From assembly GCF_016026235.1 (NCBI RefSeq), contig NZ_CP065613.1: 64,000 bases of DNA; one strand, given 5' to 3'. The stretch is from Escherichia coli (GTDB taxonomy: Bacteria; Pseudomonadota; Gammaproteobacteria; Enterobacterales; Enterobacteriaceae). The notes under the pieces were generated by a model, which saw only the letters and a list, made by a program, of their open reading frames with translations, searched no databases and was not told the DNA's origin. Positions 60,458 to 63,349 of the stretch are shown in pieces. The position numbers were made by a program, and so were the translations under genes. How positions within the stretch are numbered: the first letter of the stretch is position 1; each line of letters opens with the position of its first letter.

Positions 60458-61615
60458 TTAATTATTCTCCATTTGTTTTGCAACATCCATAATGTGGTAA
60501 AGCGGTACTCTGTTCTTGGCTAACTCCACCATGGCGTTCATATAAGGTACCATGGTTGAAAAAAGGATTTTATAATCTTCGCAAAAATAAGAAACAGTCT
60601 CATTGTTTACTTTAGTAATACGATGCTTAGGACAACCGCCATTGCAGATAGGTTTATATGCACATTTCAGACATTTCGCTGAAATCCGTTTTTTTTGCGC
60701 TGTCAGTTGTACACTGTTCATCGTTTTGAGTTCAGATTTATTAATATTTCCAATTTTGTACTGTGGATAGACAAAATGGTCGCATTCGTAAATGTCTCCA
60801 TTACTTTCAACAACCAGATTATCCTTGCAGGACTCCTGGAAAATACAACTGGTATGCCCATTCCCTAAAAAACGGCTGACAAAGCTTTCAAACTGACGGA
60901 TGAAAACTTCACCCACATCGTTTTTAACCCATTGCATAAAAATGGTTGACATAAACTTGCCATAAGCCGTGGGAGGCACAGAAAAATCAATGATACGGAA
61001 TGTGTTCTCACTATGACCACTGAAATCAATATTCGGCGTCCCGGTTTCTAGCAATTCGATAAATTGCATATGTTTACTGCCGATAGATTTTAAAAAATGA
61101 TAAACCTCAAGAGGGTAATGGACATTAACGTTATTAATGACGGTTAACGTATTAAACTCTACTTGATATGATTTCAGACGCTCGATGGCTGCTATCACTT
61201 TTGTAAAAGTACCGTTACCTGAATTACTGCGTCTGTAACGGTCATGTAACTCCTGGGGGCCATCGATCGAGATACCAACCAGAAATTCATGTTCTTTGAG
61301 AAAGGCACACCATTCATTATTCAATAAAATGCCATTCGTTTGTAATGCATTAAAAATACGTTTTTGGCCTGCATAGCGTTGTTGATAGTGAATAACTTTA
61401 CGGAAAAAATCCAGGCCAGCCAGAGTGGGTTCACCGCCTTGCCAGGTAAAATAGACCTGATTGCCAGACGCTGCGATATATTGTTTGATGAACTCTTTCA
61501 GAGTGCTGTCATCCATCCATTTTTCATGAGTAAACTGCGACTCTTTTTCAAGGTAAAAACAGTAATCACATTTGAGATTACATTGAAAACTGGAGGGCTT
61601 GGCTGTAACGTGCAT
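60458..61615 (-). CDS. ydeM: Radical-SAM anaerobic sulfatase-maturating enzyme homolog
   Basis: ORF 60458..61630; likely start ATG at 61615 ([21 protein letters not shown], CxxxCxxC radical-SAM motif), 385 aa. Confidence 0.85.
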
Positions 61616-61666
61616 CGCTATCTCGCTCAATAAGGCGGCGGAAAAATCCGCCGCATGAAGGTTTAG

Positions 61667-63349
61667 TTATTTCGCTTCGCTTAGTGCTTTCTTGATATTG
61701 TTAAACTTCTCCTGATTTACCTCGCTAAGCGGTGGCTGGCTGCTGTCGATAAACTCTCTTACCACGCCTTGCATCTCTTTAACGACCTGCGGATTGGCGG
61801 CGGCAAGGTTATCTTTTTGCTGTAGATCCGTCAGTTTGTAGAGACCTAACTGATTGTTTTCTACTGTATAGACAAGCGAATAATCGTTATTTCTCACCGT
61901 ATAAGAGAATTGGCTTAAGTCCTCAGTGTTGGGGTTATGCGGGTAATCGTCTGACTGATGACGGACAAATTTGTGGTAATTATCCCAGAATGGAATATTT
62001 TCCTCATCAAACCAGTGAGAATAAGAGGTTATCCAGGTCAGATTTTTATGTGGCTCGCCTTGTTTCTTATCTTGCAACCAGGGCAGCAAGGAAACGCCAT
62101 CCAGCTTAAGGTCTTTTGGAATGCTGATATCGGCTGCATCAAGAGCTGTCGGGTAGAAATCCATTGCGGAAATCAGCTTGTCATAATTACCGGGTTGAAG
62201 TTTTCCTTTCCACCACATAAACATTGGGGTGTGAGTACCGCCAGGATAGGTCTGACTCTTATAGCCTTTTTGCGCCCCGTTCAGCGGCAGAGGGCCATCG
62301 ATAACCGCACCATTATCGGAGGTAAAGAGAATAATTGTATTGTCATACTGTCCGTTTTTCTTCAGTTGTTCGAGAATGCGTTTTACACCCTGATCAACAG
62401 AATAAACGGAAGCGTAGTAGTTATCTGCTGTTTGACTACCGGTATTAAATTGCTTCTGATATTGCTCCGGTGCAGGATTATCATTTGGCAGGTGCGGAGC
62501 ATTATAAGCCAGGTAAAGCATAAAAGGCTGGTCAAGTGTTTTGGCACGATCAACAACGCCAATTGCCTCATCGGTTAACTGATCGCTGATATAACCTTTT
62601 GCGGGGACACGTTCACGATTTTTGAACAGTGAAGGGGAGTTGTAATATGCCGTTCCTGCAGCGTGGAATCCCATAAAGTAATCAAAGCCACGGTTTTGCG
62701 GGTGCCATTCTTCCGCAGAAAATGTGGTGAAGTTGTCATGATAGTCACGTGTTTGTTTATCTTCCGGTACCGGCACATTACTGATTTTTGACAAGTGCCA
62801 TTTACCTACTGCTGCAGTGTAATAACCATGATTCTGGAATAATTCAGGCAAGAAAGTTTCTGTTAGCGGAATACCATCCTGAGCATCAGTATTGGAATAG
62901 ACACCAAAGCGGGCGGGCGCTCGACCGGTCATTATTGCGGCGCGGGAGGGGCCGGAAACACCGTGCGCCACATAGCCGTTAGTAAAACGTACGCCTTCAT
63001 CCATTAATGAAAGGAGCGTCGGCGTTGATTTTTGCGCAGCTTCAATGGCTTTATCTATCCCTATTTTGTAGGTATCGACAACTTCACGATTTTCCATTGT
63101 TTTTGGGTCAAAAGATCCCTTATCAAAAGGAAGTTGTCCATAACCAAGATCATCCATGGTCAGTACGATAATATTTGGCTTTCCTTTGGTACTGTATTCA
63201 GTCGGCGTAAAGTCTGAGAAAGCAACGTTTGTTTTGGTTGCTTTCAGCTTTACATCATCTGCCGCATGAGCAGCAAATGCAGCCATACCAGATGCCAGTA
63301 TCAAAGATATCGAGGTACTTACGACACTTTTTTTTAATGCAGACTTCAT
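61667..63349 (-). CDS. ydeN: Sulfatase (signal peptide)
   Basis: ORF 61667..63382; likely start ATG at 63349 (MKSALKKSVVSTSISLILASGMAAFAAHA), 560 aa. Confidence 0.85.
   Translation of the reverse strand: MKSALKKSVVSTSISLILASGMAAFAAHAADDVKLKATKTNVAFSDFTPTEYSTKGKPNIIVLTMDDLGYGQLPFDKGSFDPKTMENREVVDTYKIGIDKAIEAAQKSTPTLLSLMDEGVRFTNGYVAHGVSGPSRAAIMTGRAPARFGVYSNTDAQDGIPLTETFLPELFQNHGYYTAAVGKWHLSKISNVPVPEDKQTRDYHDNFTTFSAEEWHPQNRGFDYFMGFHAAGTAYYNSPSLFKNRERVPAKGYISDQLTDEAIGVVDRAKTLDQPFMLYLAYNAPHLPNDNPAPEQYQKQFNTGSQTADNYYASVYSVDQGVKRILEQLKKNGQYDNTIILFTSDNGAVIDGPLPLNGAQKGYKSQTYPGGTHTPMFMWWKGKLQPGNYDKLISAMDFYPTALDAADISIPKDLKLDGVSLLPWLQDKKQGEPHKNLTWITSYSHWFDEENIPFWDNYHKFVRHQSDDYPHNPNTEDLSQFSYTVRNNDYSLVYTVENNQLGLYKLTDLQQKDNLAAANPQVVKEMQGVVREFIDSSQPPLSEVNQEKFNNIKKALSEAK

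Follow-up and report, generated by a model that had tools for sequence, protein, structure and literature searches.

The function of the Klebsiella pneumoniae AtsA/AtsB pair has been demonstrated experimentally. AtsA is a Ser-type arylsulfatase that carries a Sec signal and acts in the periplasm, AtsB is a cytoplasmic three-cluster radical-SAM enzyme encoded by the adjacent gene, and the serine is converted to formylglycine ahead of export. In the Klebsiella locus atsB comes before atsA. A related maturase, anSMEcpe of Clostridium perfringens, has been solved structurally (PDB 4K36-4K39), and its natural target is a Cys-type sulfatase. E. coli has two pairs of a Ser-type sulfatase and a maturase, AslA/AslB and YdeN/YdeM, though it was long thought to be without sulfatase activity, and both pairs are annotated as putative in K-12. 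AslA is of the Ser type (S-S-P-T-R in the alignment), and AslB has the CX3CX2C motif as well as the SPASM cysteines.

Here we analysed the ydeN-ydeM locus in a 64,000-nt stretch of E. coli DNA (contig NZ_CP065613.1), which as a whole is called the window. The pair was already known and annotated in E. coli, and recognising it adds nothing new. The two open reading frames were adjacent on the minus strand and separated by an intergenic gap of 51 nt:

61667..63349, minus strand, ydeN coding sequence (560 aa plus stop, ATG start), predicted precursor of a periplasmic Ser-type S1 (formylglycine-dependent) sulfatase, from the open reading frame, PF00884 and the RefSeq/K-12 annotation
60458..61615, minus strand, ydeM coding sequence (385 aa plus stop, ATG start), radical-SAM/SPASM anSME homolog, from TIGR03942, PF04055, PF13186 and the match to 4K36

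A preliminary reading made from the letters of the DNA (the sequence-only reading) had described an adjacent and co-oriented sulfatase and maturase, and this proved exact to the base. The K-12 annotation agreed, the lengths of both genes being those of b1498 and b1497, and in comparison to K-12 two amino acids were changed in YdeN and six in YdeM.

Similar to AtsA/AtsB, the locus encoded a Sec-signal periplasmic Ser-type sulfatase and a three-cluster radical-SAM enzyme from the adjacent gene, with the same predicted chemistry. In contrast to the Klebsiella pair, the sulfatase gene came first in ydeNM, the function of the two proteins is predicted rather than demonstrated, and YdeM reached 356.6 bits against a cutoff of 484 in the anSME model NF010308/PRK13745. 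YdeM was 41% identical to AslB and YdeN 27% identical to AslA, but aslB and aslA are convergent whereas ydeN and ydeM are co-oriented. YdeN also had a conserved insertion of ~25 aa past the DD metal loop (residues ~78-105) that was missing from AslA and from the S1_19 structures. We consider it very probable that ydeN and ydeM form an operon of two genes, which encode a Ser-type formylglycine (S1) sulfatase of the periplasm and a dedicated cytoplasmic enzyme that activates it.

The sulfatase and its presumed maturase

YdeN matched the Pfam sulfatase family PF00884 with E=1.4e-70 (residues 58-408, profile positions 1-301 of 301), and 71 solved sulfatases matched it at E<=1e-10. Two features of the protein were central to its assignment:

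62921..62956, minus strand, sulfatase signature S132-G-P134-S-R136-A-A-I-M-T-G-R143, read from the sequence, with Ser132 as the predicted formylglycine precursor
63263..63349, minus strand, predicted Sec signal peptide in ydeN codons 1-29 (MKSALKKSVVSTSISLILASGMAAFAAHA), followed by AD/ADD, with cleavage after A-H-A29 inferred by eye

The sequence-only reading had made its case depend on a signature in YdeN with the Cys or Ser that is converted to formylglycine. A full Ser-type signature was found, and the modifiable residue, Ser132, was present. Since YdeN did not contain a single cysteine, this residue must be a serine, and the protein belongs to the Ser-type sulfatases. The signature was invariant in 6 orthologs from six genera and in the 17-sequence alignment, and the residues D66, D67, S132, R136, K183, H185, H286, D345, N346, and K364 were likewise invariant (17 orthologs, 69-84% identity). 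Their equivalence to residues of characterised sulfatases was taken from the motif context (DD, GKWH, APH, SDNG, K) and from the HMMER alignment to 9HH2, and the roles of the catalytic and metal residues were also drawn from general knowledge of the family. The N-terminus of YdeN consisted of a Lys-rich n-region, a hydrophobic core and the A-H-A cleavage motif, and it had no twin arginine. Thus, the earlier description of YdeN as a sulfatase with a signal peptide was borne out by a readable Sec-type signal and an S1 sulfatase domain. From an alignment of 17 sequences that were all at least 69% identical, AlphaFold2 gave a YdeN model of low quality (mean pLDDT 49.7); the fold was already identified by the sequence searches.

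YdeM matched the anSME equivalog TIGR03942 with 499.9 bits (cutoff 349.45, E=3.9e-150) over residues 2-364 and profile positions 1-362 of 363; it also matched PF04055 and PF13186 (E=6e-06 for the latter). The predicted cluster ligands were in two regions:

61559..61582, minus strand, radical-SAM [4Fe-4S] motif C12-x3-C16-x2-C19 (C12-N-L-K-C16-D-Y-C19), aligned to C15/C19/C22 of anSMEcpe
60581..60847, minus strand, SPASM region in which C257, C263, C278 (then D279), C315, C318, C324, C328, and C345 are predicted to ligate two auxiliary [4Fe-4S] clusters

The motif and the passed TIGR03942 cutoff confirmed that YdeM is a CxxxCxxC radical-SAM maturase homolog, as had been proposed. The anSMEcpe structures aligned to YdeM over its full length (E=4.5e-63 for 4K36, about 5e-63 for 4K36/4K37), and the SPASM cysteines of YdeM corresponded to C255, C261, C276 (D277), C317, C320, C326, C330, and C348 of anSMEcpe. 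Accordingly, the RS, Aux I, and Aux II cysteines and the aspartate beside the Aux I cysteine were all present in YdeM, and the cluster-ligand cysteines (3+8) and the Asp after C278 were invariant in 6 orthologs. On the other hand, the partner of YdeM is a Ser-type sulfatase, and YdeM scored 255 bits against a cutoff of 441 in the anSME model NF010321/PRK13758.

It could be argued that YdeM is not the maturase of YdeN and that it has another target, for example AslA or, like other enzymes with a SPASM domain, a peptide, so that the adjacency of the two genes is incidental. YdeM did score in peptide-maturase models (DynA 217 bits, DarW 161 bits), and E. coli has the second anSME homolog AslB. 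However, all the peptide-maturase scores were under their cutoffs, and the anSME equivalog was the only one among the curated models whose cutoff YdeM passed. AslA has its own neighbouring maturase, no conserved small precursor-peptide gene was found beside ydeM, and in six unrelated contexts the maturase gene stayed next to the sulfatase gene, with order and orientation unchanged (see below). We regard another target as very improbable. The presumed target of YdeM is the signature peptide of YdeN, YVAHGVSGPSRAAIMTGR.

Benjdia 2007 is reportedly the primary study of aslB ydeM mutants and the only genetic study that names ydeM. As its title and a later description (PMC8379841) have it, the aslB/ydeM deletions in that work (Benjdia et al. 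2007, FEBS Lett) gave signs of a third system of maturation, and for this reason YdeM continues to be called a putative maturase. In the literature searched, we found no biochemical proof of YdeN sulfatase activity, of formylglycine at Ser132, or of a conversion made by YdeM.

We infer that YdeM forms formylglycine on YdeN and that this takes place before export. YdeM with three [4Fe-4S] clusters and S-adenosylmethionine would generate a 5'-deoxyadenosyl radical, and the radical would take the C-beta hydrogen of Ser132 (S-G-P-S-R) in the unfolded YdeN precursor to give C-alpha-formylglycine. The modified YdeN would then be exported by Sec, its signal peptide would be removed after Ala29, and the exported protein would fold around a divalent metal (D66, D67, D345, N346). 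Finally, the hydrated formylglycine together with R136, K183, H185, H286, and K364 would hydrolyse the sulfate ester. Since the maturase would be an oxygen-labile Fe-S enzyme, we expect YdeN to be active chiefly where oxygen is absent or low (anaerobic or microaerobic conditions), as in the gut.

The transcription unit and its regulation

The limits of the unit and the candidate signals within it were as follows:

63681..63703, minus strand, intrinsic terminator of ydeO (8-bp stem with 6 G-C pairs, then CGTTGTTTTT), the upstream limit of the ydeNM unit
63629..63644, no strand assigned, distal CRP site TGTGATGAATGTCACT, ~288 nt upstream of the ydeN ATG, matched to a published CRP target
63415..63430, no strand assigned, proximal CRP-like site TGTGACTAACTTCACT with 9/10 consensus bases, centred at ~-42 of the predicted promoter (class II geometry), conserved in K-12
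63387..63416, minus strand, predicted sigma-70 promoter of ydeN, CTTACA-18-TAAAAT, ~38 nt upstream of the ATG, from a consensus scan whose matches were no commoner than in shuffles
61635..61654, minus strand, GC-rich intercistronic hairpin GCGGCGGA-UUUU-UCCGCCGC between the ydeN stop and the ydeM start, with no strong T-run after it

The 3' end of ydeO was at 63753-64000, where the gene was cut by the window end. The sequence-only reading had ydeO immediately upstream of the pair, which was right as to position but did not hold for a linked unit, since the terminator and an AT-rich spacer of 403 nt intervened. These two elements made ydeO a separate transcription unit. A joint functional unit of ydeO and ydeNM was also ruled out, as a terminator and a separate promoter region were between them and ydeO was absent beside the pair in every other species examined.

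Transcription of ydeN probably starts within the AT-rich spacer past the ydeO terminator, in a region that CRP binds according to published data. The distal site was the published CRP target of ydeN with one spacer base different. It has been assigned to ydeN by ChIP-seq in ETEC (PMC4287617), Footprint-seq in K-12 placed a CRP site of ydeN with its centre at 1582815 and a Kd of ~1.8 nM (PMC12871828), and ydeN was among the CRP targets in genomic SELEX (PMC3105977). Three matches to the CRP consensus with <=1 mismatch were found in the 64 kb, and two of them were located in the 400-bp ydeO-ydeN spacer. No published report of the proximal site was found, and the last ~125 nt before the ydeN ATG were identical to K-12; judging by its sequence, this site may also be bound by CRP. 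No CRP-like sites (<=1 mismatch) were found upstream of the pair in other species, and the CRP control is therefore an E. coli-specific wiring outside the cassette.

It has previously been reported that ydeN is a direct AraC target and that ydeM is co-transcribed with it (PMC10878103), and arabinose was required for AraC binding upstream of ydeN (PMC3738151). Binding of GadX reduced the ydeN transcript (PMC4918353), and at pH 4.4 the mRNA and the ribosome footprints of ydeN went down by ~5 log2 together with malE, xylF, and treC (PMC10746267). Thus, in the published data AraC with arabinose, GadX, and acid each repress ydeN, and its expression varies together with the mal, xyl, tre, glp, and nag genes. 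Our scan for the AraC half-sites TAGC-N7-TCCATA gave 44 matches with 46 expected, none of them in the ydeO-ydeN spacer. A weak AraC candidate seen by eye, TAGCTAAATCTGCTATC (63452-63436, minus strand), had the TAGC box and 3/6 of the second box, which was not above chance, and no AraC site was located. Stringer 2014 is said to be the primary study of the AraC regulon.

When the 64-nt spacer between ydeN and ydeM was folded, the hairpin had a centroid energy of -17 kcal/mol (z=-2.15). A hairpin of differing sequence was present in the same spacer of all five other modules that were read, the Proteus plasmid spacer not being among those folded. The hairpin probably holds the maturase at a sub-stoichiometric level. 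A terminator scan downstream of ydeM found none, and a comparison of 60100-64000 with Rfam under permissive settings returned nothing beyond a match to isrK at the level of chance (20.3 vs 50 bits).

Spread of the pair and its possible substrate

The sulfatase gene followed by the co-oriented maturase gene, 42-222 nt apart, was found in six other contexts with unrelated flanking genes: Yersinia pestis, Aeromonas veronii, Iodobacter, Anaerobiospirillum-like gut MAGs, a Salmonella integrative element, and a Proteus conjugative plasmid. The pair is thus a self-contained mobile cassette, and its persistence in these contexts, together with the family models and motifs, supported the earlier view of ydeN-ydeM as an arrangement for anaerobic sulfatase maturation. 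No sugar transporter, glycosidase or sugar-catabolic genes travelled with the module in the contexts examined.

E. coli K-12 is not known to show classical arylsulfatase activity, and Klebsiella AtsA is activated there only with co-expressed AtsB. This would agree with a cryptic module, that is, silent horizontally acquired DNA that is intact by annotation, nears loss, and has no function in E. coli. The GC content was indeed low (38% in ydeM, 44% in ydeN, and 31% in the promoter spacer, with 49% in the window as a whole), the nearest genome had the ydeN nonsense allele W439*, and plasmid-borne paralogs had lost their maturase through IS disruption. Given the nonsense allele and the maturase-less paralogs, the module is dispensable. 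However, the 4-kb ydeNM segment was matched in 5392 of the 5426 complete E. coli genomes, with a coverage of at least 80% in 5318 of them, and the intact 560-aa YdeN formed a cluster with 6616 member sequences. Moreover, the catalytic and cluster residues were all invariant across genera, and ydeN is transcribed, translated, and regulated, as seen from ribosome profiling, its induction and repression, and the nanomolar CRP site. Decay of the module therefore appeared improbable.

The top solved relative of YdeN was the S1_19 sulfatase 9HH2 (1e-52, ~38% identity over 318 aa), and other relatives included the iota-carrageenan 4S sulfatase 6B0J (3.5e-49), 6BIA, the S1_7 exo-4S-kappa-carrageenan sulfatase 6PSM, and the S1_16 enzyme 9FO1. 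The PDB match scores (183-171 bits for S1_19, 154 for S1_7, and 139 for S1_16) served as a stand-in for placement in a SulfAtlas subfamily. These enzymes (PDB set E 1e-52 to 2e-39) shared with YdeN both the catalytic core and the context of the xGPSR signature. In contrast to YdeN, their wild types are of the Cys type and belong to polysaccharide-utilisation loci of marine origin that include glycoside hydrolases. YdeN has only its maturase as a travelling partner, and it differs further in the additional conserved insertion and in a C-terminal subdomain that has diverged. Since the nearest solved relatives are galactose-4-sulfate (carrageenan) sulfatases, a sulfated sugar was suggested as the substrate, and from sequence similarity we would give this class slightly less than an even chance. 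The most likely substrate would be a small sulfated carbohydrate able to enter the periplasm, our best guess being an ester of the galactose- or GalNAc-4-sulfate type, and desulfation would yield an ordinary sugar for core catabolism.

Alternatively, YdeN/YdeM might be a scavenging arylsulfatase system that, like AtsA/AtsB, frees inorganic sulfate from esters, aromatic or otherwise (sulfoconjugates from the host or the diet), under sulfur scarcity rather than giving access to carbon. In a Y. pseudotuberculosis iscR mutant ydeN was up 2.5-fold amid the cys genes of sulfate assimilation (PMC4055776), which fits sulfur scavenging. The sulfonated azo dye FD&C Red 40 also induced ydeN and no other E. 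coli gene (PMC10653809), and the lack of sugar-catabolic genes around the module is in line with this role. The top partial NCBIfam matches of YdeN were to arylsulfatase and choline-sulfatase models, but they were far under the equivalog cutoffs (124.2 vs 481 bits for NF010322 and 97.1 vs 433.45 bits for TIGR03417). Furthermore, the documented regulators in E. coli are CRP, AraC, and GadX, ydeN varies together with genes for sugar use, no link of CysB or Cbl to ydeN was found in the literature searched, and the nearest solved relatives are carbohydrate sulfatases. Sulfur scavenging thus seemed unlikely.

If the sulfate that YdeN removes comes from a sugar of the host or the diet, under anaerobic and glucose-poor conditions, the CRP/AraC control and the reported up-regulation in mouse-gut-adapted strains would be explained, and the use of sulfated sugars would be an added route of nutrient access for gut Enterobacteriaceae. 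More tentatively, and with rather less confidence than in the substrate class, we hypothesized that ydeN-ydeM is a self-sufficient cassette of an enzyme and its activator that is passed horizontally between Proteobacteria of gut and water by ICEs, IS-flanked islands and conjugative plasmids, in some cases together with a porin gene. The sulfatase of the cassette, which is unusually conserved (70-84% identity across orders), might act on one specific and widespread sulfated sugar, e.g., galactose- or GalNAc-4-sulfate freed by other microbes from mucin, chondroitin or dietary carrageenan. In E. coli the cassette may have been wired into the hierarchy of carbon sources, being switched on by CRP and off by arabinose/AraC and by acid/GadX, with the conserved hairpin setting the ratio of sulfatase to maturase. 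With such a cassette E. coli would have a niche in the anaerobic gut that depends on cross-feeding. The mobility of the cassette, the conserved hairpin, and the similarity to galactose-4-sulfate sulfatases would sharpen an experiment and leave the identity of the locus unchanged.

In the literature YdeN has been suggested to be a GlcNAc-6-sulfatase, whereas its nearest similarity in our comparison was to galactose-4-sulfate sulfatases.

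The ydeN-ydeM locus

Two neighbouring genes of the window encoded a sulfatase and a radical-SAM maturase:

61667-63349, minus strand: ydeN CDS (window ORF), sulfatase
60458-61615, minus strand: ydeM CDS (window ORF), radical-SAM maturase

Since both CDSs were on the minus strand and 51 nt apart, the adjacent, co-oriented pair described in the sequence-only reading had been placed at its exact CDS limits. That reading was right in both observation and interpretation. The pair was an operon already known and annotated in E. coli K-12, belonged to a well-understood type and was not novel. 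Our additions (the Ser-type assignment with zero Cys, probable cassette mobility, a conserved intercistronic hairpin, the ydeO terminator boundary, CRP sites and the closest relatives that have been characterised) were refinements useful for designing the obvious experiments, and the feature itself stays known.

Megablast matched 60000-64000 in 5392 of 5426 complete E. coli genomes, with at least 80% of the query covered in 5318, identifying this end of the window as E. coli chromosome. The annotations beneath the match were yddA, yneP (or hypothetical protein), ydeM ("anaerobic sulfatase maturase"), ydeN ("sulfatase-like hydrolase/transferase") and ydeO. The K-12 record had the same gene order and lengths (ydeM b1497, 385 aa; ydeN b1498, 560 aa), and differed at 2 residues of YdeN and 6 of YdeM. 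Residue 216 of the window YdeN was H, which was Q in K-12 and nearly all orthologs. In the nearest genome, FDAARGOS_943 (99.9% identity), ydeN (L001 7668-9350) was a pseudogene with the nonsense mutation W439*, while the window ydeN was intact; pqqL was also frameshifted there.

Judged from its location in K-12 and FDAARGOS_943, the 40-codon yneP (~60370-60492, plus strand) was expected to overlap ydeM in antisense at its 3' end. Downstream of ydeM, a 290-nt AT-rich spacer without a recognisable terminator led to yddB (TonB-dependent receptor, 790 aa) and yddA (ABC ATPase/permease, 561 aa) at 56072-60167 on the minus strand, followed by the M16 peptidase gene pqqL; yddB-yddA-pqqL formed a separate cluster.

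The sulfatase and its predicted maturase

YdeN covered the entire Pfam Sulfatase profile (E=1.4e-70) and matched 71 solved sulfatases at E<=1e-10. By eye, its N-terminus, MKSALKKSVVSTSISLILASGMAAFAAHA|ADD, was a predicted Sec signal peptide of typical form: it carried an A-x-A cleavage motif and lacked a twin arginine. This agreed with the signal-peptide sulfatase proposed earlier. It had been suggested to look for a Cys or Ser convertible to formylglycine, the lack of which would have refuted the reading. The reading withstood this check: Ser132 was present in the signature S132-G-P134-S-R136-A-A-I-M-T-G-R143. The whole protein contained zero cysteines; therefore, only the Ser type was possible. 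D66, D67, K183, H185, H286, D345, N346 and K364 were invariant across 17 YdeN orthologs and were predicted, from the usual family motifs, to be metal or catalytic residues. YdeN fell below every NCBIfam equivalog cutoff (arylsulfatase, 124 vs 481 bits; choline sulfatase, 97 vs 433 bits), and therefore the name "arylsulfatase" should not be used. Directly after the DD metal-binding loop was a ~25-residue insertion, SFDPKTMENREVVDTYKIGIDKAIEAAQKS (residues ~78-105; window ~63035-63118, minus strand). YdeN orthologs conserved this insertion strongly, whereas E. coli AslA and the S1_19 structures lacked it; it may therefore help form the substrate pocket.

The CxxxCxxC maturase homolog was likewise borne out: YdeM cleared the 349.45-bit cutoff of TIGR03942 ("anaerobic sulfatase maturase") with 499.9 bits, and it had Radical_SAM and SPASM domains. 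Residues 4-359 aligned with the solved anaerobic sulfatase-maturating enzyme of Clostridium perfringens, anSMEcpe (4K36/4K37; E about 5e-63). The radical-SAM cluster cysteines C12/C16/C19 corresponded to anSMEcpe C15/C19/C22, and C257, C263, C278, C315, C318, C324, C328 and C345 to the auxiliary-cluster ligands C255, C261, C276, C317, C320, C326, C330 and C348; the Asp next to C278 was also retained. E. coli AslB was 41% identical to YdeM. The adjoining AslA was Ser-type like YdeN but only 27% identical to it, and the asl genes were convergent. Therefore, E. coli had two separate sulfatase/maturase pairs.

Cassette contexts and the intercistronic hairpin

YdeN orthologs with 70-84% identity were found in Leminorella, Salmonella, Citrobacter, Yersinia, Proteus, Shewanella, Aeromonas, Iodobacter (a betaproteobacterium) and Anaerobiospirillum-like gut MAGs. 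Gene context was read in six places outside the E. coli locus:

Y. pestis
A. veronii, IS-flanked; porin gene about 1.8 kb upstream with an IS transposase gene between (L005 5156-6235)
Iodobacter
Anaerobiospirillum-like MAGs
Salmonella island with integrase and TraI relaxase
conjugative Proteus plasmid, cassette beside an integrase

All six had the sulfatase gene followed 42-222 nt downstream by a same-strand radical-SAM gene (386-392 aa), and the flanking genes differed among all of them. Five chromosomal or metagenomic copies were aligned (identity to E. coli, 70-82% for sulfatases and 52-67% for maturases), and each kept S-G-P-S-R and all twelve YdeM cysteines. Because order and strand were the same in six contexts with unlike flanks and these residues were kept, comparative evidence strongly suggested that ydeN and ydeM are functionally coupled and horizontally mobile. 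The low GC content (ydeM 38%, ydeN 44%, window 49%) and the 33 plasmid records with the gene fitted mobility.

E. coli IncF-type plasmids carried a 77% identical ydeN paralog immediately preceded by a porin gene (L008 2615-5870, L009, L015 3769-7024), a maturase reduced to an 85-aa remnant, and adjoining IS1, IS3 or IS110. This arrangement, together with the upstream porin gene in Aeromonas, hinted at an occasional porin-sulfatase-maturase trio.

The ydeN-ydeM spacer could be folded as follows:

61654-61635, minus strand: hairpin GCGGCGGA-UUUU-UCCGCCGC

Lacking a good T-run behind it, this hairpin was passed over by the terminator scan. All five other spacers folded (L003 9672-9728; L005 9681-9738; L007 9672-9740; L010 9663-9884; L012 9681-9737) had a strong GC-rich hairpin of differing sequence, with z-scores against shuffles of -2.30, -3.94, -4.44, -2.95 and -1.30 (-2.15 in E. 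coli). Structurally, then, the cassette had a conserved hairpin, for which the sequence records examined gave no annotation. It was reported that ydeM was co-transcribed with ydeN (PMC10878103). The hairpin may terminate transcription in part or protect a 3' end; either effect would hold the catalytic maturase YdeM below the abundance of its substrate protein YdeN.

Substrate, promoter region and regulation

No YdeN substrate was reported (PMC10878103), and further literature searches found none. The relatives of known structure were:

Solved sulfatases related to YdeN
9HH2: S1_19 sulfatase, E 1e-52, about 38% identity over 318 residues
6B0J: iota-carrageenan 4S sulfatase, E 3.5e-49
6PSM: S1_7 exo-4S-kappa-carrageenan sulfatase, E 8e-44
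9FO1: S1_16 sulfatase, E 2e-39
5G2V: Bacteroides GlcNAc-6-sulfatase BT4656, E 3e-30

BT4656, the comparison enzyme of the literature (PMC10878103), scored well below the other four. The substrate might be a small 4-O-sulfated galactose- or GalNAc-type sugar entering the periplasm through porins, a reading we favour tentatively. Sugar genes never co-travelled with the cassette, and this, like Yersinia iscR data (PMC4055776), left room for a sulfur-scavenging sulfatase, a reading we considered unlikely.

Upstream of ydeN, the following features were found:

63703-63681, minus strand: canonical intrinsic terminator of ydeO, then CGTTGTTTTT
63629-63644: distal CRP site, identical to the published site except for one spacer base
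63415-63430: proximal CRP-like site (consensus match)
63416-63387, minus strand: predicted ydeN promoter CTTACA-18-TAAAAT (consensus scan)

The ydeO gene, ending at 63753, lay immediately upstream as previously noted, but it was not part of the unit. Given its terminator, the AT-rich spacer (31% GC) and the absence of ydeO beside the cassette in any other species, it was a neighbour rather than a component. Two of the three matches to the CRP consensus (<=1 mismatch) in the 64-kb window were in this spacer. The distal site was assigned to ydeN by ChIP-seq in ETEC (PMC4287617), Footprint-seq in K-12 (estimated Kd, 1.8 nM; PMC12871828) and genomic SELEX (PMC3105977). If transcription starts where the predicted promoter places it, the proximal site lies ~42 nt farther upstream, which would be class II geometry. 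The final ~125 nt before the ydeN ATG were identical to K-12, and the sequence farther upstream was about 5% diverged.

AraC was reported to bind upstream of ydeN only with arabinose (PMC3738151), and ydeMN to be over-expressed in an araC mutant (PMC10878103). GadX binding lowered the ydeN transcript (PMC4918353). At pH 4.4, ydeN mRNA and ribosome occupancy fell about 5 log2, alongside malE, xylF and treC (PMC10746267), and in envelope-stress datasets ydeN was down together with lamB, glpFK and nagB. The sulfonated dye FD&C Red 40 induced a single gene, ydeN (PMC10653809). Therefore, ydeN was expressed and was regulated like a secondary carbon-source function, and it was linked to the neighbouring acid-resistance island by negative control only. 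Several kb from ydeNM, GC dropped sharply to 0.33 beside a 0.58 segment (window 52800-53399).
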